Below the pieces are notes generated by a model, which saw only the letters and a program-made list of their open reading frames with translations, was not told where the DNA came from and did no database searches. Shown here one piece after another: positions 8,063-63,716 of a stretch of DNA of 64,000 nucleotides. Location of the stretch: contig JADKDD010000002.1 of assembly GCA_016718525.1 (NCBI GenBank), positions 639,047-703,046 of the forward strand, given 5' to 3'. The position numbers and the translations under genes are program-made. Origin of the DNA: Rhodocyclaceae bacterium. GTDB lineage: Bacteria > Pseudomonadota > Gammaproteobacteria > Burkholderiales > Rhodocyclaceae. Numbering within the stretch: the stretch's first letter is position 1; each line of letters begins with the position of its first letter.

Positions 8063-8090
8063 TCAACGGCGTCCCGCCAGCACCAACTGG
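8063..8090 (+). repeat. Copy E of the bipartite 28-nt motif (TCAACGGCGTCCCGCCAGCACCAACTGG)
   Basis: Intergenic, between the alkylsulfatase and acyl-CoA dehydrogenase genes. Contains both conserved blocks, AACGGCGT and AGCACCAACT. Confidence 0.6.
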
Positions 8091-8106
8091 CGAATCTCCC
8101 GCAGCA

Positions 8107-9930
8107 TCAGCTAAACGCGAAGTGCTCCTTGTCCATCTGCATTACGGACCTCGTCGGTGCCAAGGCGCCCTTGCGGTGACCATCGGCACGCGGCAGCAGG
8201 CGCTCAAAATAGAACTCGGCGGTCTGGATTTTTGCTCGGTAAAACTCGACTGACTCAGCGCCCTTGCCGCTGTCGATCAGTTCTTGCGCCTTGGCTGCTT
8301 GCAGTGCCCAGAAGTAGGCGACCATGACGAAGCCGGAGTACATCAGGTAATCAACGCTGGCCGAACCGACCAACTCGCGGTCTTTGGCGGCGCGCAGCAT
8401 GATGCGGGTGGTGAGCATGTTCCACTGCACGGCGCGCGCAACCAGCGTGCGGGACATTTTGCCGAGCGGGCCGCCGGCGAACAAATTGCCACGCGCAAAG
8501 CGCCACATGATGCCGGTGAAATCTCGCACGCATTTTCCGCGCGTGCCAAGCAGAACTTTGCGGCCGAGCAAGTCCAGGGCCTGTATGCCGGTGGTGCCTT
8601 CGTAGAGCGTGCTGATGCGTGCGTCGCGGGCGATGTGTTCCATTCCGTTGGAATGAATGTAGCCGTGGCCGCCAAACACCTGCATGCCCAGGTTGGCCGC
8701 TTCCAAACCCATTTCGGTGAGGAATCCTTTGAGGATCGGCGTGTAAAAACCCAAACGACTATCGTAGTCCTCGTACTTTTTGGTATCGCCCTCGAGCACG
8801 GCGTTGAACATGTTGTCGGCGATTTGGGAGGCAGCATAAATCATGGCGCGGCCGCCTTCGGCAATCGCTTTTTGGGTGAGCAGCATGCGCCTTACATCCG
8901 GATGCCATATCAGTGCGTCGGCGGCAAACTCCGGGTCTTTCTTGCCACTGAGTGCGCGCATCGAACGACGCTCTTTGGCATAGGGCAATGCGCCCTGAAA
9001 CGAGGCTTCGGCCTGGGCCACGCCTTGAATTGCTGTTCCGATACGGGCGGTGTTCATGAAAGTGAACATCGCTTCCAATCCCTTGTTCGGCTCGGCGATC
9101 AGATACCCCACCGCTTCGTCAAAATTGAGCACCGCCGTGGCTGAAGCGCGGATACCCATCTTGTGTTCGATCGAGCCACAATTCACCGGGTTACGCGCGC
9201 CCAGGCTGCCGTCGGCATTGACCAATACCTTGGGCACAATGAACAGGGAAATGCCTTTGGTCCCGGCAGGCGCCCCGGGCAGACGGGCCAGCACGATATG
9301 AATGATGTTTTCGGTCAGATCGTGATCTCCGGAAGAGATGTAAATCTTGGTACCGGTCAGTTTGTAGGTGCCATCGGCTTGCGGTTCGGCACGGGTCCGG
9401 ACTTGCGCCAGATCGGTTCCACATTGGGCTTCGGTCAGACACATCGTACCGGCCCACTGGCCGGAAACCATGGTCGGTAAATACTGCTGCTTTTGTGCTT
9501 CGGTGCCGTATTGCATGATGGTGTTGATTGCACCGATCGATAAACCCGGGTACATGTTGAACGACCAATTTGCGGTGCCCATCATTTCCGACTTGAACAC
9601 ATTCACCGACATTGGCAAACCTTGCCCGCCAAATTCCGTGGGAAACGACAAGCTCTGCCAGCCACCCTCAGTGAATTGTTGATAGGCTTCCTTGAACCCC
9701 TTCGGCGTGGTGACGACACCGTCTTTGAATTGACAACCTTCGTCGTCGCCGGACAAACTCAGCGGCGCCAGCACTTCTTCACAAAGCGTCGCGGCGCCTT
9801 CCAGAATCGCCTCGACCATATCCGGCGTGGCATCTTTGCCGTTAGACAGACTGGCGTAGTGCGACGAGTAATCGAGCACTTCATTGATCAGAAAGCGCAT
9901 ATCGCGCAGCGGGGCTTTGTAAGTTGGCAT
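8107..9930 (-). CDS. Long-type acyl-CoA dehydrogenase (about 600 aa, FadE/AcdA-like with C-terminal extension)
   Basis: 607 aa. N-terminus MPTYKAPLRDMRFLINEVLDY is typical of this ACAD subfamily, and the ACAD N/M/C domains are recognisable. Confidence 0.85.
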   Translation of the reverse strand: MPTYKAPLRDMRFLINEVLDYSSHYASLSNGKDATPDMVEAILEGAATLCEEVLAPLSLSGDDEGCQFKDGVVTTPKGFKEAYQQFTEGGWQSLSFPTEFGGQGLPMSVNVFKSEMMGTANWSFNMYPGLSIGAINTIMQYGTEAQKQQYLPTMVSGQWAGTMCLTEAQCGTDLAQVRTRAEPQADGTYKLTGTKIYISSGDHDLTENIIHIVLARLPGAPAGTKGISLFIVPKVLVNADGSLGARNPVNCGSIEHKMGIRASATAVLNFDEAVGYLIAEPNKGLEAMFTFMNTARIGTAIQGVAQAEASFQGALPYAKERRSMRALSGKKDPEFAADALIWHPDVRRMLLTQKAIAEGGRAMIYAASQIADNMFNAVLEGDTKKYEDYDSRLGFYTPILKGFLTEMGLEAANLGMQVFGGHGYIHSNGMEHIARDARISTLYEGTTGIQALDLLGRKVLLGTRGKCVRDFTGIMWRFARGNLFAGGPLGKMSRTLVARAVQWNMLTTRIMLRAAKDRELVGSASVDYLMYSGFVMVAYFWALQAAKAQELIDSGKGAESVEFYRAKIQTAEFYFERLLPRADGHRKGALAPTRSVMQMDKEHFAFS

Positions 9931-9933
9931 TAA

Positions 9934-11223
9934 TTACTTCTCCAGAATCGCGACTACGCCTTGGCCGCCGGCAGCACAAATTGAAATCAGGCCACGACCG
10001 CTACCTTTTTGATTCAGCATTTTTGCCAGTGTGGCGACAATGCGTCCGCCGGTTGCGGCAAAGGGATGGCCGGCGGCAAGCGAGCTGCCGTTGATATTGA
10101 GTTTGCTCAGATCAATCGCGCCGAGCGCTTTGTCCAAACCCAACTTTTCTTTGCAATAGGCTTCGTCCTGCCAGGCTTTCAAGGTGCACAGCACTTGCGC
10201 GGCAAAGGCTTCGTGAATTTCGTAAAAATCAAAATCCTGCAGACTGATCCCGGCGCGTGCCAGCATGCGCGGCACGGCATACGCCGGTGCCATCAACAGG
10301 CCTTCTTTTTTGTCAAAGAAATCCACCGCAGCGACTTCGCTGAAACTCAAATAGGCCAGCACTGGCAGGTTTTTCGCAGCTGCCCATTCCTCGCTGGCGA
10401 GCAACACCGCTGATGCGCCATCGGTCAGCGGGGTGGAATTGCCGGCAGTCAGCGTGCCTTGATTGGGTGCAACCTTCTTGTCGAATGCGGGTTTAAGCGA
10501 ACGCAGCTTTTCGATGGTCAAGTCGGCGCGCAGGTTGTTGTCGACGGCAACGCCTTTAAACGGCGTCATCAGGTCGGTGAAAAAACCGTCCTTGTACGCA
10601 CGCGCCAGATTGAGATGGCTCTTGAGCGCCAGCGCATCTTGATCTTCACGACTGATGTTCCATTCGCGCGCCATCAGTTCGGCGTGCTCGCCCATCGAAT
10701 ACCCGGTGCGTGGCTCGCCGTTGCGCGGCAGCGTAGGTGAGAACAACATACCTGGGCGCATCTTCGCCAAGCTGCCCAATCGCTGTCCAGTGGATTTTGC
10801 ACGCGATGTCTCGAGCAAAATCTTGCGCATCTTTTCATTCACACCGATCGGCGCATCGGACGTGGTGTCAACGCCGCCCGCCATGCCGCATTCGATATGC
10901 CCCAACGCGATCTTGTTGGCAACGATCATCGCTGCTTCAAGACCGGTACCACAGGCTTGCTGGATATCGAACGCTGTTGTTTGCGGCGACAGCGTGGTCG
11001 ACAATACCGACTCGCGCACCAGATTAAAGTCGCGCGAATGCTTCATCACCGCACCGCCGACAACATCGCCCAGGCGCTCGCCGTGCAGGTTGAAACGATC
11101 AACCAAGCCCTGCAATGTGGCGGTCAGCATCTCCTGATTCGACGCCGAGGAATAGACGCTGTTGGACCGTGCAAAGGGAATGCGGTTACCGCCAACAATG
11201 GCGACGCGACGGATAGTGTTCAT
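9934..11223 (-). CDS. Acetyl-CoA C-acyltransferase (thiolase)
   Basis: 429 aa. Thiolase active-site context (QQACGTGLEA; C-terminal NINGSSLAAGHPFAATGGR and CAAGGQG). Confidence 0.9.
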   Translation of the reverse strand: MNTIRRVAIVGGNRIPFARSNSVYSSASNQEMLTATLQGLVDRFNLHGERLGDVVGGAVMKHSRDFNLVRESVLSTTLSPQTTAFDIQQACGTGLEAAMIVANKIALGHIECGMAGGVDTTSDAPIGVNEKMRKILLETSRAKSTGQRLGSLAKMRPGMLFSPTLPRNGEPRTGYSMGEHAELMAREWNISREDQDALALKSHLNLARAYKDGFFTDLMTPFKGVAVDNNLRADLTIEKLRSLKPAFDKKVAPNQGTLTAGNSTPLTDGASAVLLASEEWAAAKNLPVLAYLSFSEVAAVDFFDKKEGLLMAPAYAVPRMLARAGISLQDFDFYEIHEAFAAQVLCTLKAWQDEAYCKEKLGLDKALGAIDLSKLNINGSSLAAGHPFAATGGRIVATLAKMLNQKGSGRGLISICAAGGQGVVAILEK

Positions 11224-11305
11224 GGTTTGCTCCTAAATAGAGTTACGCTTGATTATTAGATATGTCGCCGTGTCACCAGCACAAACTGACAAAACAGCGG
11301 GCGAC

Positions 11306-12193
11306 TTACGCGTAAGTGATCTGTCCGCGCAAGTGCGGCTTGTCGCCTTTTTGATTGCGCACTTCGAATGCGGTGGAAAGTTCGCTATGTGTTGCCCACA
11401 GTGAGGCTGTTGCCGGTAGAAACAACGGTGTTTTGAATTCGACGTTCACCGAAGCTTGTGCCACGGCATAAGGCGGCATCAGTTGCGCCAATGCCCGCGC
11501 TTTGGTCCACAAGCCGTGAGCGATGGCGGCGCGAAAACCGAACAGCTTGGCGGAAAGTGCCGACAAATGAATCGGATTCATGTCACCCGACACCTTGCCG
11601 TAACGACGACCAATGTCGCCTGGGGCGCGAATGTCGGCCTGGCGCGATAACGGCAAATCGGCATTGAGAGCGCTGACGAATTTGTTCCCGGCAGGGTTCT
11701 TGACACCAATTCGCAACAAGGTCTGTGTGGCATCCCAGACCAACTCATCGCCGCGCAGGATCTTCATTTCCATATTGAAGACCTGACCCTTTTCGTGTGC
11801 GATCAAATCCCCGGTCGCGACCTCAACCCGCAGGTCGTCACCCGCTTTCAGGATCGCGTGTTGAGCGATGCGATTGGCCAGATGCACGGTGCCCATCCCA
11901 GGCCACGGACAGTCTGGCGAGGCGAAGAATGCCATCATCAAAGGGAAAGTGAGCATTTGCGGATAAATGATTGGCACGCCCTGAGCTTCGGAGTAACCGC
12001 AGACTTTGGCATAGGCAGCAATATGCGCCGCATCCAATTTCACACTCGGGCGAACATAAGTTATTGACGGCAGCGCCGTGACCACACCGGGCTTTTTGCG
12101 ACTGGATTTAAGTGCGCCGAGGAACATTCCTGCCGGGCTCATCTCCTCGGTGACTTCGATGACTTTCATTGCGGGTTTCTTTGAGCTTGCCAT
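11306..12193 (-). CDS. MaoC-like double hot-dog (R)-specific enoyl-CoA hydratase/dehydratase
   Basis: Start reassigned to the ATG at 12193 (MASSKKPAMKV...). The longer ORF reaching 12541 overlaps the SDR gene and reads as Arg-rich nonsense. The C-terminal half carries the MaoC signature (SGDMNPIHL...AIAHGLW). Confidence 0.75.
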   Translation of the reverse strand: MASSKKPAMKVIEVTEEMSPAGMFLGALKSSRKKPGVVTALPSITYVRPSVKLDAAHIAAYAKVCGYSEAQGVPIIYPQMLTFPLMMAFFASPDCPWPGMGTVHLANRIAQHAILKAGDDLRVEVATGDLIAHEKGQVFNMEMKILRGDELVWDATQTLLRIGVKNPAGNKFVSALNADLPLSRQADIRAPGDIGRRYGKVSGDMNPIHLSALSAKLFGFRAAIAHGLWTKARALAQLMPPYAVAQASVNVEFKTPLFLPATASLWATHSELSTAFEVRNQKGDKPHLRGQITYA

Positions 12194-12204
12194 GGTATTT
12201 ATCC

Positions 12205-13614
12205 TCAAGCGCCGATCAAACTTTGGCCGCAAACGCGAACCACGTTGCCGGTGAGGCCGCTTGATGCGGGATTGGCAAACCAGACAATGGCTTCGGCCAC
12301 ATCCACCGGCAGGCCGCCTTGGCTCATGGAGTTCATCCGCCGCCCGGCTTCGCGCATGGCAAACGGAATCGCTGCGGTCATTTGCGTTTCTATGAAACCC
12401 GGTGCAACGGCATTGATCGTCACGCCATGCTTGGCAAACACCGGCGCGGTGCTTTGCACCATGCCGATGACGCCGGCTTTGGACAGTGCGTAGTTGGTCT
12501 GGCCCATATTGCCGGCGATGCCGGAGATGGACGAAACGCAAACAATGCGCGCGCCGGACTTGAGCACGCCCGATTCAACCAACGCGTCATTGATACGTTC
12601 CTGGGTCGACAGGTTCACGTTCATCACCATCTGCCAGAAACGCTCCTTCATGTTGGCAATCGTTTTGTCGCGCGTGATGCCGGCGTTATGCACGATCACA
12701 TCCCAGCCGCCATCGGCTTTCGCCGCGTCCACCAGTTTCTGTGGTGCGTCTGCTGCGCCGATGTCGAGTTCAATCGCCGTCGCGCCGAGTTTGGCCGCAA
12801 TCTCGTTCAAACCCGGTTGCGCCTGCGGCACATCGAGACAAATCACCGTTGCGCCTTCCCGCACCATCACCTCCGCAATTGAGGCGCCGATACCGCGAGA
12901 AGCACCGGTGACCAGCACTTTCTTGCCAGCCAGTGGCTTGTTCCAGTCCGACGGCGTACCGCCGGCACCAACTGGCAATCCAACGCGAATAACCTGTGCC
13001 GAAACATAGGTCGAGCGTGGCGAGAGCAGGAAGCGAACAGTGGATTCGAGCTGATCTTCCGCGCCTTCAGCCACGTAAACCAATTGCACTGCAATTGCGC
13101 GTTTCAATTCCTTGGCCAAGGATCGCGTCAGGCCTTCCAGTGCGCGCTGAATCGTCGCCTGGCGTGGATTCGCACATTTCTCCGGTGGTCGTCCGAAAAT
13201 AATTACCCGGCCGCACGGCAAGACCGAACGCGCAGCATCGTGGAAAAATTGATACAGCGCATCGGACTGCGTGCTGTCGGTCAATCCAGTGGCGTCAAAA
13301 ACAAGTGCCTTGACCTTCTCGCCTGGTTGGTCATCCACTCCCCAACGTCCGCTCATCAATCCGGCTTGATTTGCCAGCGGCAACCATTGCGGCAAATGCC
13401 GGGGCGCAACGGTTTGTACGCCGATCGATTTGAAGATTTTCGCCAATGTCGGCAACAACGGTGCGTCGCTGCCGCCACCGATCAGTAACGAGCCTTTGAT
13501 CACCGGCTGGCCTTCCTTATAACGATCAAGCACGATGGGTTTGGGCAAACCGAGCGCATCAGCCAACTTGGCACCAACGGCGGAGTTAGCAAAATTGAGA
13601 TAGCTATCGTTCAT
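12205..13614 (-). CDS. Long SDR-family 3-oxoacyl/3-hydroxyacyl reductase (about 450 aa, extra N-terminal domain)
   Basis: The C-terminal half has TGASRGIG, NAG and YxxxK (YALSKAG) SDR motifs. The N-terminal roughly 200 aa matches the long 3-ketoacyl reductase type found in beta-oxidation clusters. Confidence 0.8.
   Translation of the reverse strand: MNDSYLNFANSAVGAKLADALGLPKPIVLDRYKEGQPVIKGSLLIGGGSDAPLLPTLAKIFKSIGVQTVAPRHLPQWLPLANQAGLMSGRWGVDDQPGEKVKALVFDATGLTDSTQSDALYQFFHDAARSVLPCGRVIIFGRPPEKCANPRQATIQRALEGLTRSLAKELKRAIAVQLVYVAEGAEDQLESTVRFLLSPRSTYVSAQVIRVGLPVGAGGTPSDWNKPLAGKKVLVTGASRGIGASIAEVMVREGATVICLDVPQAQPGLNEIAAKLGATAIELDIGAADAPQKLVDAAKADGGWDVIVHNAGITRDKTIANMKERFWQMVMNVNLSTQERINDALVESGVLKSGARIVCVSSISGIAGNMGQTNYALSKAGVIGMVQSTAPVFAKHGVTINAVAPGFIETQMTAAIPFAMREAGRRMNSMSQGGLPVDVAEAIVWFANPASSGLTGNVVRVCGQSLIGA
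12948..12975 (+). repeat. Copy F of the bipartite motif (CCGACGGCGTACCGCCGGCACCAACTGG)
   Basis: Lies inside the SDR gene, antisense to the coding strand. 24 of 28 positions are identical to copy E. Confidence 0.5.
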
Positions 13615-21058: not shown

Positions 21059-21067
21059 ATCCGACGA

Positions 21068-22889: not shown

Positions 22890-24494
22890 ATGAAACGAAG
22901 CTTGAGAAATCTGGGCCTTGCTGCGTTGCTGCTTGTCGGTGCATTTGCATCAGCGCAGGCCGCCGACAAAAAGCCCAACATCGTCGTCATCATGGGCGAC
23001 GACATCGGTTGGTCCAATATCGGCGCCTACAACCAGGGCATGATGGCTACCCGGACGCCGAACCTCGACAAGCTGGCGGCCGAGGGCATGCGTTTCACCG
23101 ATTACTACGCTGAAGCCAGCTGCACGGCTGGTCGAGCAGCTTTCGTTACCGGCCAGTTGCCTATCCGTACCGGCATGACGACGGTCGGTCAGGCTGGCGC
23201 ACCCACCGGCATGCCGGCACAGGCAATGACCATCGCCACGGCCCTCAAGGAGCAGGGCTACGCGACCGGCCAGTTCGGCAAGAACCACCTCGGCGACAAG
23301 AACGAGTTCCTGCCCACCGTCCATGGTTTTGACGAATTCTTCGGCTACCTCTATCACCTCGACGCGATGGAAGACCCGGCACACCCGAATTACCCGCAGG
23401 AGCTGCTGAACCGGGTCGGGCCGCGCAACATGGTGCACAGCTGGGCTACCGCCACGGACGACGCGACAGTCGATCCACGCTGGGGCAAGGTCGGCAAGCA
23501 GAAGATCGTGGATGCCGGCACGCTCTACCCGAAACGCATGGAAACCGTGGATGACGAGATTCGCGATCTCGCGCTCAAGTTCGTCGAAAAAGCCAAGGCC
23601 GATAACAAGCCTTTCTTCCTTTGGCTGAACCCGACGCGCATGCACATCGTCACCCACCTGTCGCCGAAGTACGAGGCGTTGCGCAACTCGAAAAACGGCT
23701 GGTCCATCCAGGAAGCCGGCATGGCGCAACTGGACGACGATATTGGCATCGTGATGCAGAAGCTCAAGGACATGGGTGTAGATGACAACACGATTGTCGT
23801 CTTCACCACCGATAACGGTACCGAGACCTTCACCTGGCCGGATGGCGGCACCACGCCGTTCAAGGGGCAGAAAGGCACCGGCTACGAAGGCGGCTTCCGC
23901 GCTCCGGCGATTCTCCGCTGGCCGGGCAAGGTGCCTGCAGGCAAGGTCGAGAATGGCGTTATGTCCGGCCTTGACTGGTTCCCGACCCTGGTGGCTGCCG
24001 CCGGCAACCCGAACATCAAGGACGAGTTGCTGAAGGGCAAGACGGTGGGTGGCAAGACCTACAAGAACCACCTCGACAGCTACAACCAGATGCCCATGAT
24101 CACCGGCAAGGGGCCGTCAAACCGCAATGAGGTTTACTACTTCACGGAAAGCAACCTCGCCGCGGTCCGGATCGGCGACTACAAGTATCAATTCATCGAT
24201 CAGCCCCAGGGCTGGCTCGGCGCCAAGAATCATATTGACGTACCGACGCTGATCAACCTGCGTCTGGATCCCTACGAGCGCATGGCCTGGCCGGAGAATG
24301 GAACGCTCAATGGTTCGCAGAACTATTTCTCGTGGTTCCAATATGAATTCTGGCGCTTCGTGTTCGTTCAGGAAGAAGTTGCCAAACTGGCCATGTCAGC
24401 CATCGAGTATCCGCCGATGCAGAAGGGCGCAAGCTTTAATCTCGATGCCGTAAAGGCAAGGATCGCTGCTGCAGCGGCCGCGCAAGGCAAGTAA
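22890..24494 (+). CDS. Arylsulfatase (formylglycine-dependent sulfatase family), secreted
   Basis: Signal peptide, PNIVVIMGDDIGW metal-site motif and the formylglycine motif as C-T-A-G-R (SCTAGRAAFVTGQ). Confidence 0.9.
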   Translation: MKRSLRNLGLAALLLVGAFASAQAADKKPNIVVIMGDDIGWSNIGAYNQGMMATRTPNLDKLAAEGMRFTDYYAEASCTAGRAAFVTGQLPIRTGMTTVGQAGAPTGMPAQAMTIATALKEQGYATGQFGKNHLGDKNEFLPTVHGFDEFFGYLYHLDAMEDPAHPNYPQELLNRVGPRNMVHSWATATDDATVDPRWGKVGKQKIVDAGTLYPKRMETVDDEIRDLALKFVEKAKADNKPFFLWLNPTRMHIVTHLSPKYEALRNSKNGWSIQEAGMAQLDDDIGIVMQKLKDMGVDDNTIVVFTTDNGTETFTWPDGGTTPFKGQKGTGYEGGFRAPAILRWPGKVPAGKVENGVMSGLDWFPTLVAAAGNPNIKDELLKGKTVGGKTYKNHLDSYNQMPMITGKGPSNRNEVYYFTESNLAAVRIGDYKYQFIDQPQGWLGAKNHIDVPTLINLRLDPYERMAWPENGTLNGSQNYFSWFQYEFWRFVFVQEEVAKLAMSAIEYPPMQKGASFNLDAVKARIAAAAAAQGK

Positions 24495-24631: not shown

Positions 24632-24659
24632 TTAACGGCGTGTCGTGAGCACCAACTCA
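24632..24659 (+). repeat. Copy A of the bipartite motif (TTAACGGCGTGTCGTGAGCACCAACTCA)
   Basis: Intergenic, upstream of the PPIase gene. Near-identical to copy B. Confidence 0.6.
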
Positions 24660-24722
24660 CCTGTCTCACCCGCTAAAATTGCGAGTTCGGGGTTGCTCCA
24701 ACCCACAATCTAGGATGAATAA

Positions 24723-25598
24723 ATGAAACTGAATAAACGCGCTTTGATCATTGCCGGGGCAGTCTCTGTGCTCGCACTTGCGGCCTGTGATGCAACCAAG
24801 GAAGCCAGTCAGGCAGCCAAGAATCCGGCAGCGGCAACCGTTAACGGAAAGGCGATCAGCCAGCGCACGGTCGACATGATTGTTGCGCAGGGGGCCGCTT
24901 CCGGCCGACCGGATACACCGGAAGCGCGTAAGAGCATCATCGAACAACTGGCGCTGCAAATGGTGGTTGCTGATGAAGCGATCAAGAAGGGTTTGGACAA
25001 ATCACCCGAAGTTGCCGAGCAAATCGATGCAGTCAGACAAACCGTGCTGGCCAACGCCTATGTGCAGGACTTCGTCAAAAACACGCCGATCAGTGACGAG
25101 ATGGTGAAAGCCGAGTATGAACGCATCAAGACGATGATCAGCGGCACGGAATACAAGGCCCGCCATATCCTGGTCGAGAAGGAATCTGAGGCCAAGGAGA
25201 TCATCGCCAAGCTCAAGACTGATCCGGCTGCATTTGAGAAGCTGGCAATGCAAAAATCAACTGATACCTCATCCAAAGTTCGCGGCGGCGATTTGGGCTG
25301 GTTTGATTTGCGTGGCATGGTGCCCGAATTCGGCGCGGCGGTCAGCAAGATGGAAAAGGGCAAGTTCACGCTGGAGCCGGTCAAGACGCAATTTGGATAT
25401 CACGTCATCTGGCTGGATGACTCGCGGCCAATCCAAGCCCCGCCGCTAGAAAGTGTGAAGCCTCAACTCACCGAGCAACTCCAGCAAAAAAACGTGAAGA
25501 CTGCGCTGGATGAACTGAAGGCAAAAGCCAAGATTGAAATCGTCAGCGCGGTTGCACAACCAGCGCCGGCGACACCCACCGCGCCAGCATCCAAGTAG
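24723..25598 (+). CDS. PpiC/parvulin-type peptidyl-prolyl isomerase, lipoprotein (SurA/PrsA-like)
   Basis: Lipobox LALAAC. Parvulin core ARHILV...GGDLGWF...FGYHVI. Confidence 0.85.
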   Translation: MKLNKRALIIAGAVSVLALAACDATKEASQAAKNPAAATVNGKAISQRTVDMIVAQGAASGRPDTPEARKSIIEQLALQMVVADEAIKKGLDKSPEVAEQIDAVRQTVLANAYVQDFVKNTPISDEMVKAEYERIKTMISGTEYKARHILVEKESEAKEIIAKLKTDPAAFEKLAMQKSTDTSSKVRGGDLGWFDLRGMVPEFGAAVSKMEKGKFTLEPVKTQFGYHVIWLDDSRPIQAPPLESVKPQLTEQLQQKNVKTALDELKAKAKIEIVSAVAQPAPATPTAPASK

Positions 25599-34679: not shown

Positions 34680-35177
34680 TCAGGTCTGCGTCGGCAACAT
34701 CCGGTAATGGCCACCGTAGTACAACAGCGGCGGCGGAGCATCCTTGTTGCGGTGATGACGTTCGACATGACCGATAAAGATGACGTGATCGCCACCCGGG
34801 TATTGCGTTTCGCGGCGGCACTCGAAGCTGGCACAGCAGCCGACAATCAACGGCGTGTCACCAGCACCAACTCGCAAGTCGAGGCCGGTAAATTTGTCCT
34901 GCCGGGTTCCGGCAAAGCGTCGTGAAATATCGACCTGATTTTCGGCCAGCACATTCACCGCAAAATGTGTACAGGCTTCAAAGGCAGGCAGTAATTTCGA
35001 GTCGGAAGTCAGGCTCCACAGTATCAGCGGTGGATCAAGGGATACCGACGCAAAGGAATTGACTGTCAAGCCGACAAAGCGACCATCGATCCCGCGCGCA
35101 GTAACCACCGTAACGCCAGTGGCAAATTGTCCGAGCGACTGACGCAACGAGCGGTGAGTGGATTCTGAAGGTGCCAT
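34680..35177 (-). CDS. Flavin reductase family protein (HpaC/RutF-like)
   Basis: Start set at the ATG at 35177 (MAPSESTHRSLRQSLGQFATGVTVVTA...). Conserved NSFASVSLDPPLILWSL and GGDHVIFIG. The upstream part of the 316-aa ORF is low-complexity and not credible. Confidence 0.8.
   Translation of the reverse strand: MAPSESTHRSLRQSLGQFATGVTVVTARGIDGRFVGLTVNSFASVSLDPPLILWSLTSDSKLLPAFEACTHFAVNVLAENQVDISRRFAGTRQDKFTGLDLRVGAGDTPLIVGCCASFECRRETQYPGGDHVIFIGHVERHHRNKDAPPPLLYYGGHYRMLPTQT
34847..34874 (+). repeat. Copy B of the bipartite motif (TCAACGGCGTGTCACCAGCACCAACTCG)
   Basis: Lies inside the flavin reductase gene, antisense to the coding strand, where the gene encodes RVGAGDTPLI. Confidence 0.6.
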
Positions 35178-39442: not shown

Positions 39443-40469
39443 GCGATTTTTCGCGCCGCCTGATCCGCTGGCACAAGCGCCACGGCCGCCACGATTTACC
39501 TTGGCAAAACACTACCGATCCCTACCGGGTTTGGTTGTCGGAAATCATGTTGCAGCAAACGCAAGTGGCAACCGCAATGCCCTATTACGAGCGTTTTCTG
39601 CAACATTTCCCGACCTTGGCCGATCTCGCCGATGCGCCGGTTGGTGAGGTGATGGCGCTGTGGAGCGGCTTGGGTTACTACGCCCGGGCGCGCAATCTGC
39701 ATGCCTGCGCGCGGATGGTCATGACGCAGCATGGCGGATTGTTTCCGGACCAGCCGGAGCAACTCGCTGAGCTACCCGGCATTGGCCGTTCGACGGCAAA
39801 TTCGATTGCAACCTTCTGCTTTGGCGCTCGTGCGCCCATCCTCGATGGCAATGTCAAACGCGTGCTCAGCCGATGCTTTGGCGTCGAGGGATTTCCCGGC
39901 AACACTATCGTCGAGAAGCAGCTGTGGTCGCTGGCAGAAGAATTGATGCCGGCCAAGCATGGTGACATCTACAACCAGGCACAAATGGATTTGGGAGCCA
40001 CGCTTTGTACGCGCAGTAAGCCGCGCTGTACTGATTGCCCGTTGGAGGATATCTGTGTTGCCAATGTGACCGGCAGGCAGACCGAGCTACCACATAGAAA
40101 ACCGCGCGCAGCGATTCCCGAACGAGCGGTGACCGTGCTGATCCTGCGGCACAACAACAGGGTTTTGTTGGAACATAGACCCCCGCATGGAATTTGGGGC
40201 GGCTTGTGGTCCCTGCCGGAATTGCCCGATGGCACTCCAGCAGACGTTTTTTGAATCAACGATTCAGTTGCCAAATACGCACCGCGTCGCCAGCACCAAC
40301 GCTCACCCACACCTTCACTCACTTCCGTTTGCAGATTCTGCCATTGGTCTGCGACGTGACTGCACCACCGCAGGTCATGGAAACGGGAACGACTTGGTTT
40401 TTACTAAGCTCAGTGAACAGCATCGCGCTACCTGCGCCGATCAAAAAACTGTTGAGTTCGTTGATTTAA
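39439..40469 (+). pseudogene. mutY: A/G-specific adenine glycosylase MutY, interrupted by a frameshift at a T6 run
   Basis: The N-terminal 271 aa (HhH-GPD, 4Fe-4S Cys cluster CTRSKPRCTDCPLEDIC) run in the 39439 frame and end at the TGA at 40252-40254, directly after T6 (40247-40252). The NUDIX-like C-terminus (THTFTHFRLQILPL...) continues in the -1 frame to 40469. Confidence 0.8.
40281..40305 (+). repeat. Copy G of the bipartite motif, shortened (ACCGCGTCGCCAGCACCAACGCTCA)
   Basis: Lies inside the mutY C-terminal segment. Shares the exact 15-mer GTCGCCAGCACCAAC with copy C. Confidence 0.45.
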
Positions 40470-41020: not shown

Positions 41021-41610
41021 CGCGGCATTAACTGATGCGCTACTCCTAGCTGATCCAGTATCCGCGCAACGACAAAATCAACCACGCCATCAATATCTTT
41101 CGGGTGATGATAAAAACCCGGATTGGGCGGCAAAATCACGGCGCCGGCGCGCGCCAAGCGCAGCATGTTCTCCAGATGGATGACCGAGAATGGCGATTCC
41201 CGCGGCACCAGAATCAGTTTGCGACCTTCCTTCAAAACGACATCCGCCGCCCGTGAGATCAAGTCGTCAGCCATTCCGGCGGCAACCTTCGCCAGGGTTC
41301 CCATGGTGCACGGGCAGATGACGTAAGCATTGGGCGGATTGGATCCAGAGGCGAGTGGCGCAAACCATTCCTGCTGTCCAAAGACACGAAGCTGCCCGGG
41401 CGCCGCTTTGAATCTTTCAGTGAAATCCGTTTCAACTTCACTCGGACGTGAACGCAGCGTAAACCCGATTTCCTGTTGCGCAACGACTTGCGTCGCCGGT
41501 GAGTACAGTAGCTGAACGTTGACACCAGCTGCGATTAAACACTCGACCAGCCGCATGCCGTAGGGTAGGCCGGATGCTCCGGTAAATGCCACGGCGATTG
41601 TTGAATTCAC
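40999..41610 (-). CDS. ubiX: Flavin prenyltransferase UbiX
   Basis: 203 aa. VAFTGASGLPYGMRLVECL ... ICPCTMGTLAKVAAGMADDLISRAADV is the typical UbiX/Pad1 sequence. Confidence 0.9.
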   Translation of the reverse strand: MNSTIAVAFTGASGLPYGMRLVECLIAAGVNVQLLYSPATQVVAQQEIGFTLRSRPSEVETDFTERFKAAPGQLRVFGQQEWFAPLASGSNPPNAYVICPCTMGTLAKVAAGMADDLISRAADVVLKEGRKLILVPRESPFSVIHLENMLRLARAGAVILPPNPGFYHHPKDIDGVVDFVVARILDQLGVAHQLMPRWGEQAE

Positions 41611-42239
41611 TTTGATAACTCCATTCCGTCAGTTGGTGCTGATGAGCTCTGCATGCCTTGGACTCCGCTGCGCGGGGTGGCAACGCCGTCGTCCTTCATC
41701 AGCTGCCCGGCAACCAGTCCATTGACAATACCAAACACCAAGGCGGCCAAACCAAATATCGGCAATAAATAAAACACGCCATCATGTGGCACCAACCAAA
41801 GGCGTGCAACCACGATCTGACCGCCGATATGGGCAAACGCCGCCACAACGCTATGGCTGACCGGCCCGAACCATGCGGCAGGCAACCGGCAACTGAGCCC
41901 CAGTACGGTCAGACTGCAAATGGCGCCGGCCAGACTCATAAAAAAGCCCGGGGCAAGAAAAGTCCCGCCAACCAGCGCAGCGGCGAAAACCCTCAACAAA
42001 CTCACCCAAGCCGCATCTTTCCAGCCGTGCTTGAGCAACACGACCAGGATGATGATATTCGCCAGCCCCGGCTTGACCCCGGGCAAGGGGCTGGGCAAGG
42101 CTCCTTCGGCGATGGTTATCGCAATCGCTGCCGCCGCATAGCCGGCGATACGATAGTCGTCGGCGCTCGGGCGCAAAACGATTTCGGTCGGTTTAGTAGT
42201 TGAGGCTGTCATGACGATTGCCTGAGCCGCGACCGGCAA
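41607..42239 (-). CDS. Gx transporter family / heptaprenyl-diphosphate-synthase-component-I-like membrane protein (PF07456-like)
   Basis: Polytopic. IAEGALPSPLPGVKPGLANIIILVVLL is recognised from this family. The stop overlaps the ubiX start (4 nt). The start is uncertain. Confidence 0.55.
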   Translation of the reverse strand: MPVAAQAIVMTASTTKPTEIVLRPSADDYRIAGYAAAAIAITIAEGALPSPLPGVKPGLANIIILVVLLKHGWKDAAWVSLLRVFAAALVGGTFLAPGFFMSLAGAICSLTVLGLSCRLPAAWFGPVSHSVVAAFAHIGGQIVVARLWLVPHDGVFYLLPIFGLAALVFGIVNGLVAGQLMKDDGVATPRSGVQGMQSSSAPTDGMELSK

Positions 42240-44249: not shown

Positions 44250-44501
44250 TCACACTCTCGCTGACCTACAACCAGCAGGATTGACAACACGTTCCGTCGA
44301 CGCCGGGTTGGCCGCAAGTTTGGCTGCCGGGCGGCGTGGACGTGTCACCAACTCGCCGCCACAGTTTGGACAGATTCCGTGCAACACAGTTTCGGCACAA
44401 GCGACACAAAAGGTACATTCAAAGGAACAAATCCGTGCTTCGGTTGATTCCGGCGGCAAGGCCGAATCACAGCACTCACATGATGGTCTCAATTGCAACA
44501 T
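44250..44501 (-). CDS. DUF1272 domain protein (Cys-rich zinc-ribbon-like)
   Basis: 83 aa. MLQLRPSCECCD...CSFECTFCVACAE...CPNCGGELV matches the DUF1272 pattern. Confidence 0.7.
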   Translation of the reverse strand: MLQLRPSCECCDSALPPESTEARICSFECTFCVACAETVLHGICPNCGGELVTRPRRPAAKLAANPASTERVVNPAGCRSARV

Positions 44502-46810: not shown

Positions 46811-48112
46811 TCAAACCGCTGCTGCAATCGACGCATCAATAATATCGAGCGCTTCATCGAAGTGAGCGTCAGCAATCGTCAGCGGATAAAGAAAACGCAC
46901 GACGTTGAAATACACGCCGCAAGTGAGCAGAATCAAACCGCGATTGCGCGCTTCGCTCTGTACCCGTTTGGTGAAATCTGCATCGGGTTTACCAGTCTTC
47001 GGATCATTAAATTCGCAGGCAATCATTGAGCCGGGGCCGCGAATGTCGGCGATCTGCGGGAATTTCTTGGCAGCATTTGCAAGGCGCGCCTTGAGCTTGT
47101 CGCCAAGCATGTTGGAGCGAGCAATCAGCCCTTCTTCCTCAATTGCGGCAATCACCGCATGCGATGCGGCGATCGCCAAAGGGTTGCCGGCATAGGTTCC
47201 ACCGAGACCGCCAGGTGCAGGCGCGTCCATGATTTCGGCACGGCCGCAGACGGCGGAAAGCGTGGTGCCGCCGGCCATGCTTTTGGCCATGGTCATGATG
47301 TCGGGCAAGACGTCGTAGTGATTCATGGCAAACCATTTTCCGGTACGACCGAATCCAGTCTGGACTTCATCGGCCACCATCAAGATGCCGTGTTCGTCGC
47401 AAATCTTGCGCAGCGCGGTCATGAATTCAGGCGGTGCCATATAGAAACCGCCCTCGCCTTGCACCGGCTCCAAAATAATCGCTGCAACGCGCTTGGCTTC
47501 AATTTCGGATTTGAAAATATGTTCGATGTAGGCGAGCGAATCCTCAACGCTGACGCCATGTAACGGAATCGGAAACGGCGCGTGAAATATTTCACCCGGG
47601 AAAGGGCCGAAGCCGATCTTGTAGGGCGCCACTTTGCCGGTGAGTGCGGCTGCCATCATCGAGCGGCCGTGGAAGGCGCCTGAGAAAGCGATGATGCCGG
47701 AGCGGCCGGTAGCGCAGCGGGCGATTTTGACAACGTTCTCGACCGCCTCGGCGCCAGTGGAAAAGAACGCGGTCTTTTTGGCGTGGTTGCCGGGTGTGAT
47801 CTGATTGATCTTTTCAGCCAGCGTGACATACGACTCGTAGGGCACGACCTGATAGCACGAGTGCGTGAATCGATCGATCTGCGCCTTGAGTGCGGCGACA
47901 ACTTTGGGATGGCGGTGACCGGTGTTGAGTACCGCGATGCCACCGGCGAAGTCGATGAAGCGGCGGCCTTCAACATCCCACAGCTCGCCATTTTCGGCAC
48001 GATCAATAAAGAAATCTGCCATTACGCCGATGCCGCGCGGGGTGGCGGCGAGACGACGGGCGTGGAGTTCCGCGTTGCTGACTTTGATGGTTGATTTCAT
48101 CGGCGCATTCAT
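46811..48112 (-). CDS. gabT: 4-aminobutyrate--2-oxoglutarate transaminase
   Basis: NAELHARRLAATPRGIG...DFAGGIAVLNTGHRHPKVVAAL... is closely GabT-like. The ATG at 48112 forms an ATGA overlap with the upstream ALDH stop. Starts at 48130 or 48100 are also possible. Confidence 0.9.
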   Translation of the reverse strand: MNAPMKSTIKVSNAELHARRLAATPRGIGVMADFFIDRAENGELWDVEGRRFIDFAGGIAVLNTGHRHPKVVAALKAQIDRFTHSCYQVVPYESYVTLAEKINQITPGNHAKKTAFFSTGAEAVENVVKIARCATGRSGIIAFSGAFHGRSMMAAALTGKVAPYKIGFGPFPGEIFHAPFPIPLHGVSVEDSLAYIEHIFKSEIEAKRVAAIILEPVQGEGGFYMAPPEFMTALRKICDEHGILMVADEVQTGFGRTGKWFAMNHYDVLPDIMTMAKSMAGGTTLSAVCGRAEIMDAPAPGGLGGTYAGNPLAIAASHAVIAAIEEEGLIARSNMLGDKLKARLANAAKKFPQIADIRGPGSMIACEFNDPKTGKPDADFTKRVQSEARNRGLILLTCGVYFNVVRFLYPLTIADAHFDEALDIIDASIAAAV

Positions 48113-49605
48113 TGGTCTATCCTTATCCACGTGGTCTTCAGCTCGGTGTACTTTTCCATCGCGTGCAGTGATTTGTCGCGGCCATTGCCCGACTGTTTGT
48201 AGCCGCCAAAGGGTACGGTGATGTCGTCTTCATCATAGGAATTCACATGCACGGTGCCGGCACGTAGTGCGCGCGCAACGCGGTGCGCCCGAGACAGATT
48301 GCCCGACCAGACGGCGGCGTTGAGTCCATAGGGAGAATCGTTGGCCATCGCGATGGCATCGGCCTCGTCTTTGAAGCGAATGATGCTCAGCACCGGCCCG
48401 AAGATTTCTTCGCGGGTGATCTTCATGTCATTGCTGCAACCGTCGAAAACGGTTGGCGCAACAAAAAAACCGCCGGACTCAGGTCGTGCCTGTACTCCGC
48501 CAGCGACACATTTGGCGCCTTCGTTCTTGCCGGCTTCGATGTAGCCAAGCACCACATTCATCTGCCCGACATCGACCAGCGCGCCAAGTTCCGTGTTTGC
48601 GTCCAAAGGATCGCCTGCAGCATAGCCAGGTGTTTGCGCAACGATCCGGGCGACAAATTCATCGGCGATGGATTCCTGTACGAACAAGCGCGACGGCGCG
48701 TTACAGGATTCGCCCTGGTTGTAGAACATGCTGCCGGCAGCGGTTTCTGCCGCGCGCTGCAAATCATCGCAATCGGCAAAGATGAGGTTGGCCGATTTTC
48801 CGCCAAGCTCGTTGTACACGCGCTTCAGGTTTGATCGACCAGCGTATTCCAGCATCTTGCGACCGACGCGCGTCGAACCGGTAAAACCAATCGCATCGAC
48901 GTCCATGTGCAGTGCCAGTGCTTCACCCGCTTCGTGGCCAAAGCCTGGCACAACATTGAAGACGCCCTCGGGTAGCCCGGCTTCAAGGGCAAGCTCTGCC
49001 AGTCGCAAGGCGGTCAACGGTGACTTCTCGGACGGCTTGAGCACCACGCTATTGCCGGTTGCCAGGGCCGGGCCAAGTTTCCATGCGGCCATCAGCATTG
49101 GGTAGTTCCACGGCACGATGACGCCGATGACGCCCATTGGTTCGCGATCAATCAGTGCCAAGGCATTGTCCCCGGTTGGTGCAATTTCGCCATACACCTT
49201 GTCGATGGCTTCACCGTACCAGGCGATACAGTTCGCCGAGCCGGGCACATCGGCGGCGAGACTATTTTTAATCGGCTTACCCATGTCTAGCGTTTCCAGC
49301 AGCGCCAATTCATCGCAATGTGCAAGCATTTTTTCTGCGAACGCCTGCAGGATTTTCTTTCGCGCAGACGGTGCTTGCCCGGCCCAGGTGCGGGCGTTGA
49401 ATGCTCGCCGGGCCGCGGCAACAGCGAGATCAATATCCGCCAATTGCCCGCGCGCGATTTGTCCGAGTACTTTGCCATTCAGCGGCGAGATGCAGTCAAA
49501 GGTTTGTGAGTTGGTGCTGGCGACACGCCGTCCGTTGATCAAGCAGCGGCCATCAATACTCACTGCTGCTGCGCGGGCATGCCAATCGGGTGTTGGAGTA
49601 TTCAT
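48109..49605 (-). CDS. NAD(P)-dependent aldehyde dehydrogenase, PuuC/PauC/KauB-like (gamma-glutamyl-gamma-aminobutyraldehyde / aminobutyraldehyde)
   Basis: 498 aa. ALDH catalytic motifs ELGGKS and the FYNQGESCNAPSR Cys region. N-terminus resembles PuuC. Confidence 0.85.
   Translation of the reverse strand: MNTPTPDWHARAAAVSIDGRCLINGRRVASTNSQTFDCISPLNGKVLGQIARGQLADIDLAVAAARRAFNARTWAGQAPSARKKILQAFAEKMLAHCDELALLETLDMGKPIKNSLAADVPGSANCIAWYGEAIDKVYGEIAPTGDNALALIDREPMGVIGVIVPWNYPMLMAAWKLGPALATGNSVVLKPSEKSPLTALRLAELALEAGLPEGVFNVVPGFGHEAGEALALHMDVDAIGFTGSTRVGRKMLEYAGRSNLKRVYNELGGKSANLIFADCDDLQRAAETAAGSMFYNQGESCNAPSRLFVQESIADEFVARIVAQTPGYAAGDPLDANTELGALVDVGQMNVVLGYIEAGKNEGAKCVAGGVQARPESGGFFVAPTVFDGCSNDMKITREEIFGPVLSIIRFKDEADAIAMANDSPYGLNAAVWSGNLSRAHRVARALRAGTVHVNSYDEDDITVPFGGYKQSGNGRDKSLHAMEKYTELKTTWIRIDQ
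49507..49538 (-). repeat. Copy C of the bipartite motif (rc: TCAACGGACGGCGTGTCGCCAGCACCAACTCA)
   Basis: Lies inside the ALDH gene in the sense orientation, encoding INGRRVASTNS. Has a 3-nt insertion relative to the other copies. Shares the exact 17-mer TGAGTTGGTGCTGGCGA with copy D. Confidence 0.6.
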
Positions 49606-60862: not shown

Positions 60863-60903
60863 GGCTTTACCTTAGGAGTGAGAGCAACTCAAATGCGCAC
60901 ATT

Positions 60904-62007: not shown

Positions 62008-62099
62008 GATTGCTGCTCCATTTTTCTTGTTGGATCGGATGACGATTCGTGTCGTCAATTCCGCAATCTGGGACTGTAGCGACTATTGGTATCATTGGA

Positions 62100-62133
62100 A
62101 GAGCCACTTTTCATGTTTCGATAGAGCCACTTT
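62100..62133. promoter_or_regulatory. Two 11-nt direct repeats AGAGCCACTTT spaced 23 bp apart, candidate MocR operator
   Basis: Exact copies at 62100-62110 and 62123-62133, in the ald / MocR divergent intergenic region. Confidence 0.35.
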
Positions 62134-62163
62134 ACTTTTTCTTAGATCGGTCGACTGACCCAC

Positions 62164-63645
62164 ATGATCCCGTTTTCTCTCGGTGAATGGCTGCTTGCAG
62201 ACATGCAGCAGAGTGTGTCCAAGGCTGCGCCCGGTGCCCTGCGCCGTTACCGTAGCGTTTATGAAGGAATCCGCAAGGCAATACTCAGTCGTCGAATGTC
62301 TGCAGGTATCCGTTTGCCGTCAAGCCGGGCATTGGCAGAGGAACTCGGCGTCTCGCGCAATACCGTGGTGGCGGCCTTCGATCAGTTGTTGGCAGAAGGT
62401 TACGTGACCGCAGCGACGGGCAGCGGAACCTATGTCTCCGACATCGGCCGCGGCGAGAATATTCGTCCCAAGCCGGTTCGTTTGCATCGCGGACCGGCGC
62501 TTTCCGCGCGTGGCCGGCGAATCGTTGCCGCTCCGGGCGGGAACACGCATGAGATTCAACCATTTGTTCCCGGGATGGATGATTTTTCGGTCTTTCCATC
62601 AAAAATCTGGCAGCGCCTGCAAAACAAATATTGGCGTGAAAGTCCGCCTGAATTGCTCGATTACGCTGCGGCCGGTGGTTATCAACCGCTACGACGGACC
62701 ATCGCCAACTACTTGAGCATTTCACGCTCGGTCCGGGTGGCTGCCGAACAAGTACTGATCACTGCAGGCACGCAGCAATCACTCCACCTATGTGCTCAGT
62801 TACTCGCCAGTCCGGGTGAGTTGGCCTGGGTTGAAGACCCGGGATACTGGGCGGCACGGAAGGTCTTCGAGGCCTGTGACCTGACCTTGCGTCCGATCGC
62901 AGTGGATGCCGAAGGGATACATCCCGCAGCCGCCGATCTTGCCACTTCGCCGCGGCTGATCTATGTCACGCCATCGCATCATTACCCAACCAGCGCAGTG
63001 ATGAGTTTGCCGCGCCGCCAGGGTTTGCTGGATTTGGCGGCGGGCAAAGGCGCATGGATACTCGAAGATGATTACGATAGCGAGTTTCGCTACAGCGGAC
63101 GCCCGCTTTCTTCCTTGCAAGGGCTGGACAGTCACGACTGCGTCATCTACCTGGGCACCTTCTCAAAAATTCTCTACCCCGGTATCAAGCTTGGTTATTT
63201 GGTAGTGCCCGCTGATCTGGCCGAATCGTTCAAGACTTCCCTTTATGACACTCAGCGACCCGGTCAAGTGATGCTGCAAGCAGCTCTGGCCGACTTTATC
63301 GAACAGGGTCACTTCGCCACACACGTGCGCAAAGTCCGCCAGGTCTATGGCGAGCGACGGGAATCTCTGGTGCGGGTCTTGCAATCCATCCTTGGCCGGC
63401 ACGCCAAGCTTTCAAAGGAAGCGTCAGGCATGCACCTGGTCATCGAACTACCCGATGCAGCTTCTGATCTACACATTGCGGCGGAAGCAGCCAAACAGGG
63501 GCTCGTGGTCAGAGCATTGTCGAGTTACTATCTCGGTCAGCCGCAACGCAGGGGTCTGGTGGTTGGCTATGCGTATGTGCCAACCGAGCGAATTCAGCAC
63601 TTCGGCAGCTTGTTGGGCAACATCGTCAAGAAGGCACTCCGGTGA
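62164..63645 (+). CDS. MocR/GabR-family transcriptional regulator (GntR-type wHTH fused to aminotransferase-like domain)
   Basis: 493 aa. N-terminal VYEGIRKAILSRRMSAGIRLPSSRALAEELGVSRNTVVAAFDQLLAEGYV, and a fold-type-I AAT domain with the FSKILYPGIKLGY lysine. Confidence 0.85.
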   Translation: MIPFSLGEWLLADMQQSVSKAAPGALRRYRSVYEGIRKAILSRRMSAGIRLPSSRALAEELGVSRNTVVAAFDQLLAEGYVTAATGSGTYVSDIGRGENIRPKPVRLHRGPALSARGRRIVAAPGGNTHEIQPFVPGMDDFSVFPSKIWQRLQNKYWRESPPELLDYAAAGGYQPLRRTIANYLSISRSVRVAAEQVLITAGTQQSLHLCAQLLASPGELAWVEDPGYWAARKVFEACDLTLRPIAVDAEGIHPAAADLATSPRLIYVTPSHHYPTSAVMSLPRRQGLLDLAAGKGAWILEDDYDSEFRYSGRPLSSLQGLDSHDCVIYLGTFSKILYPGIKLGYLVVPADLAESFKTSLYDTQRPGQVMLQAALADFIEQGHFATHVRKVRQVYGERRESLVRVLQSILGRHAKLSKEASGMHLVIELPDAASDLHIAAEAAKQGLVVRALSSYYLGQPQRRGLVVGYAYVPTERIQHFGSLLGNIVKKALR

Positions 63646-63666
63646 TAATTGCCTGGTACAGACTTA

Positions 63667-63716
63667 TGAGTTGGTGCTGGCGAGGGACTGGCCCGTTTAT
63701 CGGCCACACGCCGTTG
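63667..63716 (-). repeat. Copy D of the bipartite motif, split by a 22-nt spacer
   Basis: rc: CAACGGCGTGTGGCC-[22 nt]-CGCCAGCACCAACTCA. Intergenic, between the MocR and LLM oxidoreductase genes. Confidence 0.55.

Follow-up and report, generated by a model that had tools for sequence, protein, structure and literature searches.

A 64,000-nt stretch of a Rhodocyclaceae bacterium (assembly GCA_016718525.1, contig JADKDD010000002.1, positions 639,047 to 703,046; hereafter, the window) carries about 10 copies, including shortened, split, rearranged and half copies, of a DNA motif of 28-30 bp with sharp boundaries. Its consensus is ACGGCGTGTC[A/G]CCAGCACCAACT(GGCGA), and copies fall on either strand, within genes as well as between them. 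We found that the motif is abundant, restricted to one clade, neutral in orientation and retained at orthologous sites of related species, and that its genic copies originated in place. The motif behaves like the uptake signals of other bacteria, the uptake signal sequence (USS) of Haemophilus and the DNA uptake sequence (DUS) of Neisseria, yet it is not assigned to the USS/DUS family. Our reading, which is tentative and to which we give somewhat less than even weight, is that the motif could be a "self" tag peculiar to its lineage, which a sequence-directed drive would spread and which would work like an uptake signal.

The edges of the motif were evaluated on 118 exact copies with mutually unrelated flanks, gathered from the sequence blocks listed in the genome scan described below. 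In the extended logo, T-R-ACGGCGT-G-T-C-[A/G]-[C/T]-C-AGCACCAACT-G-[G/A]-C-R-A, information is confined to the interval from position -2 before ACGGCG through about +28, and the flanks are random; thus, the repeat unit is really about 30 bp long and is not the end of something larger. About 23 positions are near-invariant across the 28-30 bp, the five central ones vary by transitions only, and position 10 is A in about 62% of the copies in relatives. The window species may use its own 3' variant, AACTCA/CG vs AACTGGC, on a comparison of five copies only. The short form of the motif showed no secondary structure when folded (-2.6 kcal/mol, z = +0.35).

An original prediction, made on the letters of the window alone, had reported at least six occurrences of AGCACCAACT. 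There are six, all where they had been placed, vs 0.10 expected, and none of 100 dinucleotide-preserving shuffles reached that number. Taken by itself, the other block, AACGGCGT, is marginal (7 in the window vs 3.6 expected). The 25-mer consensus gave three window matches at ≤3 mismatches vs 0 expected, and the 23-nt core with its common alternatives gave six at the same threshold, against about 0 under a third-order Markov null. Words derived from the motif are the top over-represented 11-mers and 12-mers of the window. Over all the analysed blocks, 110, 52, 22, 10 and 4 copies were counted at 0 to 4 mismatches, vs about 0 expected from 60 column-permuted motifs, and only a small excess over these was found at 5-6 mismatches; the blocks had been picked for exact matches, which inflates the 0-1 mismatch classes.

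The motif is limited to a narrow group of bacteria. A scan for ACGGCGTNNCNNNAGCACCAACT across one genome per species (about 186,000 species) returned at least 100 blocks, and among the blocks listed all but one came from two Rhodocyclaceae metagenome-assembled genomes (MAGs), JADKHX01 and JANYAW01, which are 78-86% identical to each other. The window belongs to a third species, in synteny with JADKHX01 at about 77% nucleotide identity. Further relatives were obtained through two proteins of the window, the MocR regulator and the acyl-CoA dehydrogenase (ACAD). Conservation in related genomes, by which the original prediction had proposed to judge the motif, was found in JADKHX01, in JANYAW01 and in three more carriers: L192 (GCA_016718245.1, ACAD 86% identical), L187 and L188 (MocR regulator 86% and 81% identical). 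The motif is absent from L189 and L190 (MocR regulator 75% and 69% identical) and from L193 and L194 (ACAD 82% and 81% identical), both with the same FabG4-MaoC-thiolase-ACAD operon. The non-carriers have the same operons, with proteins more divergent from those of the window. No alternative repeat "dialect" was seen in the motif-free L189 and L190. As a control, 1.03 Mb of metagenome contigs bearing homologues of the window's aldehyde dehydrogenase (ALDH) contained zero copies; these contigs come from a metagenome scan with the ALDH protein, represent relatives at ≤76% amino-acid identity and offer no orthologue data.

L190 contains two 5-mismatch matches only (11502 and 13086), which resemble each other (GCCGTAYCGYYAGCRYCGACTTT). 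One of them occupies the exact orthologous site behind the MocR gene and could be a decayed or ancestral copy.

The unbiased density, obtained from the window and L192, is about 1 copy per 5-9 kb, so that each genome should hold some hundreds of copies, with about 800 as the upper limit. The motif was found in independent long-read, short-read and Logan assemblies, and no description of its sequence was found in the searchable literature. The only match in the viral collection scanned is a perfect copy, with the 3' extension of the clade, inside a 589-aa open reading frame of a phage contig (IMG/VR UViG_3300020050_000709; L195:4849-4871; 10.9 kb, GC 49%, encoding a major head protein and virion proteins).

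The genomic placement was evaluated on 193 copies (99 blocks plus the window), using a rough gene caller that assigned 88% of the DNA to coding sequence. About 50% of the copies are intergenic vs 12% of the DNA, an approximately seven-fold excess. The genic copies are 44 in sense and 47 in antisense, and they use five of the six frames, namely all the stop-free ones, a TGA falling in the sixth. Most genic copies are in two of these frames, 39 reading PVGAGDTPS in antisense and 29 reading DGVSPAPTGE in sense, so that the frame preference raised in the original prediction does exist. Essential genes are among the hosts (dapB, aroA-cmk, purK, deaD and a P-type ATPase gene), and genic copies are more common towards the protein termini. 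Intergenic copies prefer the 3' ends of genes: convergent spacers are about 2-fold enriched and divergent ones depleted, and, of the 47 copies in tandem spacers, 34 are closer to the stop codon of the preceding gene (median distance, about 21 nt). With respect to the direction of transcription, the tandem-spacer copies are 22 in the same and 25 in the opposite orientation; since this orientation is random, a role at the RNA level is unlikely. The proposal of a DNA-level motif, as opposed to protein paralogy, is upheld, and the motif is genome-wide.

Overall, 97 copies are in plus and 96 in minus orientation. We found no association of orientation with the sign of the GC skew (Fisher p = 0.72) or with gene strand (p = 0.63), the co-orientation of neighbours is not significant (53 same, 38 different, p = 0.14), and single long contigs carry both orientations intermixed. 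Nor does the GC skew of the window switch where the orientation of the motif changes. The strand polarity suggested by the original prediction, with plus copies on the left and minus copies on the right, is therefore a small-sample accident of the window.

Once a motif occurs inside conserved enzymes, its mode of arrival can be evaluated by alignment with homologues. In the window, the ALDH site NGRRVASTNSQTF aligns without indels with NGEYSNAASGETF of PDB 6b4r (NGRRVASTNSQ vs NGEYSNAASGE), and the flavin reductase RVGAGDTPL aligns in the same way with DLGVGNIPL of PDB 5zc2; in JADKHX01, DapB has HLTACRQHQLSM vs HLQKCVEKQVNI in PDB 6bdx, again without indels. The motif site of ALDH was pre-adapted, since homologues elsewhere have I-x-G-[QR]-R-V-A-S there. 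The FabG4-like protein is 469 aa long in two carriers and two non-carriers alike, and at its motif site the carriers have GLPVGAGGTPSDW or GTPVGAGGTPLNW where the non-carriers have GAAVGASVVPADW or GQAVGPRTLPADW; the unchanged length and the similarity of the non-carrier site indicate that the motif was written over an existing similar sequence. These comparisons show that the genic short-form copies originated by in-place substitution, with no insertion.

The copies are also retained. In the segment shared by the window and L192 (75-84% nucleotide identity), three of three window copies stand at orthologous sites: among them, the 8064 copy is at the same intergenic site (L192:11842) and the degenerate 11263 copy corresponds to one with a single mismatch (L192:8537). 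Between JADKHX01 and JANYAW01, five of five copies are shared at 78-86% identity, and the 63667 copy of the window is shared with JADKHX01. Turnover was observed as well, with copies at L020:1637 and L192:15500 that have no counterpart in the window.

The copies of the window are reported in Table 1. The seven listed in the original prediction all exist, and three were added (11263-11293, plus; about 44330-44355, plus; and the right half at 41631-41640, minus), while several details had to be amended. The 3-nt insertion described at 49507-49538 is not there: the core is perfect, and the upstream TCAACGG falls outside the motif, in which information begins 2 nt ahead of ACGGCG. The gap at 63667-63716, given as 22 nt, is an insert of 23 nt. 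The exact 17-mer is common to the 49507 and 63667 copies and the 15-mer to the 40281 and 49507 copies, different pairs from those proposed. The GGCG-N3-CGCC inverted repeat, attributed to four copies, was found in three window copies only and is not conserved in relatives, and the intergenic copies are at least five instead of three. As had been claimed, the genic copies of the window lie in different frames (three) and on both strands: antisense VGAG(D/G)TP twice, sense (S)PAPT twice and sense RRVASTNS once. The 40281 copy belongs to mutY (39439-40480) only because the gene shifts frame at a T6 run (near 40243-40248), beyond which its C-terminal NUDIX-like domain (HTFTHFRLQI...) resumes in another frame; the frameshift is either a homopolymer sequencing error or the mark of a pseudogene.

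Table 1. Copies of the motif in the 64-kb window, with their strand and genomic context.
Copy	Position	Strand	Context	Peptide or remark
Short form, 1 mismatch	8064..8094	+	Intergenic: alkyl-sulfatase gene (6017-8032, -) / acyl-CoA dehydrogenase gene (8107-9930, -)	
Degenerate short form, 3 mismatches	11263..11293	+	Intergenic: thiolase gene (9934-11223, -) / MaoC-dehydratase gene (11306-12232, -)	
Short form	12949..12979	+	Antisense in FabG4-like reductase gene (12205-13614, -)	PVGAGGTPS, interdomain linker
Short form, 1 mismatch	24633..24663	+	Intergenic: sulfatase gene (22890-24494, +) / PPIase gene (24723-25598, +)	
Perfect core	34848..34878	+	Antisense in flavin reductase gene (34680-about 35200, -)	RVGAGDTPL
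2 nt short	40279..40305	+	Sense, frameshifted C-terminal part of mutY	ASPAPT
Right half only (AGCACCAACT)	41631..41640	-	Sense, 3' end of Hpre_diP_synt_I-family gene (41607-42239, -)	ISAPTD
Rearranged, degenerate (GGCGTGGACGTGTCACCAACTCG)	44330..44355	+	Intergenic	Weakest member
Perfect	49503..49533	-	Sense, N-terminal region of aldehyde dehydrogenase gene (48109-49605, -)	NGRRVASTNSQ
Long B form	63667..63716	-	Intergenic, 22 nt past MocR/GntR gene (62164-63645, +)	Halves split by 23-nt insert GGCCGATAAACGGGCC+AGTCCCT

The host gene of the 41631 half copy is heptaprenyl-diphosphate-synthase-like, and no terminator-like hairpin was found at the 24633 copy. At the gathering threshold, Rfam 15 reported one tRNA in the whole window (856-929, minus) and nothing at the motif. 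A second word, CTACAACCAG/CTGGTTGTAG, is found six times in the window vs 0.09 expected (1473, 23027, 24080, 39969, 44266 and 48715); as four of the six are in-frame Tyr-Asn-Gln codons of unrelated genes, the word is explained at the codon or peptide level and is no further DNA repeat.

In the long variants of the motif both ends are preserved, ACGGCG (usually ACGGCGTGT) on the left and CAYCAGCACCAACTGGCG on the right, and the boundaries are sharp at numerous loci that are unrelated to one another. Form B (at least 10 copies, including the one at 63667-63716) contains a 21-23 nt insert, GGCCGATGAACGGGCC+ATTCCAT, exactly between motif positions 8 and 9. Form C (6 copies) has an insert of about 75 nt with two hairpins, and is the only clearly structured one among the folded motif forms. 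Form D (5 copies) has an insert of about 65-70 nt, which looks as though it had entered at the motif centre, where 6 bp (TCAYCA) are repeated. The stems of all three forms show compensatory changes (B, GGCC/GGCC vs CCCC/GGGG; C, GTCGGC/GCCGAC vs CTCGGC/GCCGAG; D, GCGC/GCGC vs GGGC/GCCC). At the orthologous site after the MocR gene, JADKHX01 and L188 have the short form, the window has form B and L187 form D; L189 has no copy and L190 only a 5-mismatch match. Unlike the genic short form, the B and D inserts are insertions relative to orthologous sites. The fused aroA-cmk gene (EPSP synthase and cytidylate kinase; L105:4547-6583, minus; L024:4722-6635, plus) bears two motif copies. In JADKHX01, one of these genic copies has a 21-nt in-frame B-type hairpin insert (GVS-PDTGIAS-SAPTD), and the JANYAW01 orthologue has the short form at that site, with no insert. 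The B, C and D modules, which in every case lie between the motif halves, cannot arise in place: they are either tiny elements targeting the motif centre or sequences swapped between copies with the halves as homology arms.

Long variants were located at L080:2006-2057, L092:3938-3989, L098:6025-6076, L051:6108-6154, L049:3811-3853, L083:247-289, L027:4548-4650, L074:2722-2812, L041:1082-1140, L063:3820-3877, L187:1955-2080 and L192:15490-15590, and also in L073 and L101. At an E-value threshold, Rfam gave nothing relevant for seven loci holding long variants. JANYAW01 also contains an unrelated, REP-like repeat family, CCCCATCCCCACCC..CTCCCCTTGAAGGGGAGGG, with a hairpin (L059:118-156, L077:1184-1309 and 2753-2854, L078:2520-2637, L086:68-104).

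Hundreds of tolerant sites overwritten in either orientation, in one narrow clade, and then retained, require a sequence-directed drive or to strong per-site selection acting through a clade-specific DNA-binding reader. Biased uptake followed by recombination is the only well-understood process with such a signature. In the mechanism we propose, a clade-specific, sequence-specific DNA-binding factor would read the motif in double-stranded DNA, and the motif would spread via a sequence-directed drive and not by transposition. The most likely drive would be that of USS and DUS: competent cells would favour the uptake of motif-bearing fragments and then recombine them, so that mutations moving tolerant sites towards the consensus would gain a transmission advantage. 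Copies would then accumulate where they are least harmful, right after stop codons, and in protein segments that already resembled what the motif encodes in one of its five stop-free frames. The hairpin-bearing long variants would be a secondary phenomenon, as modules inserting into the motif centre or as sequences exchanged between copies. From the genomic signature we infer that the reader may be the DNA-uptake machinery and that the carrier bacteria may be competent. The resemblance to uptake signals noted in the original prediction is supported: the motif proved to be lineage-specific, genic and intergenic, balanced in orientation, biased in frame and of in-place origin within genes.

Several observations weigh against the uptake-signal reading. 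No intrinsic terminator overlaps the motif at the three intergenic window copies scanned, and inverted pairs are rare, two among about 190 copies. We found no literature on uptake signals or natural competence in Rhodocyclaceae and no competence or pilin genes within the 64-kb window, and the prepilin N-terminal signature had no match in about 780 kb of blocks, a sample of approximately 10-20% of each genome that is too small to be informative. The motif, with about 23 near-invariant positions over 28-30 bp, is long in comparison with the 9-12 bp cores of known signals, and its density is 5-8 times lower than that of the Haemophilus or Neisseria signals. Furthermore, the transition-only centre would also fit recognition by base pairing. 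Finally, about 10% of the copies are long variants with conserved hairpin inserts, and a pure uptake drive cannot produce hairpin inserts recurring at many loci. The two inverted pairs (L022:6733-6771 and L104:5731-5769) are head-to-head dimers that form a near-perfect palindrome of about 40 bp, AGTTGGTGCTGG.ACACGCCGTGT.CCAGCACCAACT.

The same evidence can be read in other ways. The motif could be an array of binding sites for a clade-specific cytoplasmic DNA-binding protein, with copies maintained by ordinary per-site selection and no uptake drive; chromosome organisation or domain barriers, gyrase- or condensin-type loading, and a self-marker for defence or repair are possible roles. The two-block structure of the motif, long and asymmetric, with a "soft" centre that changes by transitions only, is typical of a protein footprint, and the neutrality in orientation, the retention at orthologous sites, the lack of association with terminators and the 5-9 kb spacing, which we would place near the size of a supercoil domain, all agree with it. 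We nevertheless consider this explanation unlikely: selection would have to be strong at hundreds of sites to rewrite conserved segments such as the one of DapB, no known family of nucleoid or partition sites is so long and also common in coding sequence, and no candidate protein was identified. The long variants suggest instead a family of ultra-small mobile or gene-converting elements with ends ACGGCG and CAYCAGCACCAACTGGCG and a variable interior (3 nt in the short form, 21-23 nt in B, about 75 nt in C and about 65-70 nt in D), propagated by an enzyme encoded elsewhere or by templated conversion between copies. Indeed, the long forms have the same two ends and are sharply delimited at many unrelated loci, their hairpins carry compensatory changes, one orthologous site holds the short, B or D form depending on the species, form D looks as if it had been inserted, with 6 bp of the motif centre repeated, and the in-frame insert in aroA-cmk is present in one MAG only. 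As an account of the motif as a whole it is slightly less likely still, because the dominant genic short form is no insertion (ALDH, flavin reductase, DapB and FabG4 show no change in length) and has no secondary structure, non-carrier orthologues show pre-adapted sequence, and the copies are old, being conserved between species at 75-86% identity, and are not decaying. Moreover, the motif has no Rfam match, and the ten genes bracketed by motif copies are ordinary metabolic genes, with no RAYT-like gene or transposase among them.

Two further explanations have little room left. A strand-polar architecture signal of the Chi, KOPS (FtsK-orienting polar sequence) or AIMS (architecture-imparting sequence) type, pointing with replication, would agree with the window, where plus copies lie left of about 44 kb and full minus copies right of 49 kb; it is highly improbable given the balanced and intermixed orientations of the 193 copies and their independence of GC skew and gene strand. 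There is a negligible probability that the pattern is due to chance or is an artefact of codon usage, of peptides or of assembly: two peptides, VGAGDTP and SPAPT, do cover most genic copies, but half of all copies are intergenic, the genic ones use five frames on both strands, shuffles and permuted motifs expect 0 copies, and independent assemblies obtained by different methods all carry the motif.

Other known kinds of element were considered and rejected. The length would fit a CRISPR repeat, but there are no arrays; non-complementary ends and scattered copies speak against an attC or dif-like recombination site; the motif far exceeds the length of a type I restriction-modification site; and a shared peptide motif is excluded by the intergenic copies and the five frames. 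Repetitive extragenic palindromic (REP) sequences and their REPIN doublets do not apply either, as there is no hairpin-forming palindrome, about half of the copies are genic and inverted pairs are rare; the original prediction had already set REP elements aside, and the lack of structure in the short form agrees with that choice.

Returning to the uptake-signal reading, its fullest version is that this is the first such system outside Pasteurellaceae and Neisseriaceae, in uncultured wastewater and freshwater Rhodocyclaceae, with a two-block signal of about 28 bp whose centre serves as a landing site for 21-75-nt hairpin mini-elements, some of them in frame in essential genes; this version is conceivable, although we regard it as doubtful. 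Uptake signals are reported in the searchable literature only from Pasteurellaceae (USS, Haemophilus) and Neisseriaceae (DUS, Neisseria). Both families are host-associated, and arguments on why uptake signals evolve are therefore limited. If the reading were true, a third, independent system would be a new test case for this question, in environmental Betaproteobacteria abundant in activated sludge and with a signal three times longer, and it could be used to test the molecular-drive model, receptor-signal co-evolution and, in engineered ecosystems, the barriers that species set to gene flow. Should the reader be something other than the uptake machinery, conserved segments of essential enzymes overwritten hundreds of times by a 28-bp word still imply a strong sequence-directed force that had gone unrecognised. 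As apparent mobile units, the nested hairpin modules rank with the smallest seen in bacteria, and the motif is a practical marker for binning and tracing the DNA of the clade in metagenomes.

The motif can be compared in detail with the known systems. As in USS and DUS, a single lineage-restricted word is present in hundreds of copies, the two orientations are equally frequent without replichore polarity, genes and intergenic DNA both contain copies, with an intergenic excess towards gene 3' ends, genic copies originate in place in tolerant protein segments with a reading-frame bias, and copies are kept at orthologous sites of related species. The possible 3' variant of the window species, on five copies compared, would be a further point in common. 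Known uptake signals show a reading-frame bias and are roughly half intergenic, and about half of them lie in terminators, often as inverted pairs (bioRxiv 10.1101/2025.10.24.684340). Unlike them, our motif extends over 28-30 bp with about 23 near-invariant positions in place of a 9-12 bp core, occurs about once per 5-9 kb as opposed to about once per kb, stands outside intrinsic terminators and almost never in inverted pairs, has hairpin-insert variants, and belongs to a family for which no competence is reported. HIP1 (GCGATCGC) of cyanobacteria is hyper-abundant in coding and non-coding DNA and conserved at orthologous sites beyond expectation, with a function that is unknown (PMC5861425). 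The motif shares with it the presence in both kinds of DNA and the orthologous conservation; however, HIP1 is an 8-bp palindrome, linked to methyltransferases and present in more than one copy per gene, whereas the motif is 28 bp long, asymmetric and much rarer.

Among repeat families, REP and REPIN elements, associated with RAYT transposases, also comprise hundreds of short interspersed copies with an intergenic excess mainly after genes. REPs are nevertheless imperfect palindromes, extragenic and usually arranged in inverted pairs, whereas the short motif is unstructured, half genic and rarely paired, and no RAYT was found beside ten motif-flanked genes. Chi, KOPS and architecture-imparting 8-mers are likewise over-represented words tolerated inside genes, but they are 5-8 bp long and strongly skewed to the leading strand, and the motif has no polarity. 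In contrast with miniature inverted-repeat transposable elements and very small mobile repeats, the genic short form is not an insertion relative to its orthologues (four proteins, no change in length). The closest precedent for a mobile family would be the very small dispersed repeats (SDR, 21-27 nt) of Nostoc, reportedly described by Elhai et al. in 2008. The tiny size, the nested modules, the association with hairpins and the occurrence in genes are common to both, and the B and D inserts behave in this way; the SDRs, however, are insertions relative to orthologues, whereas the main short form of our motif is a same-length substitution.

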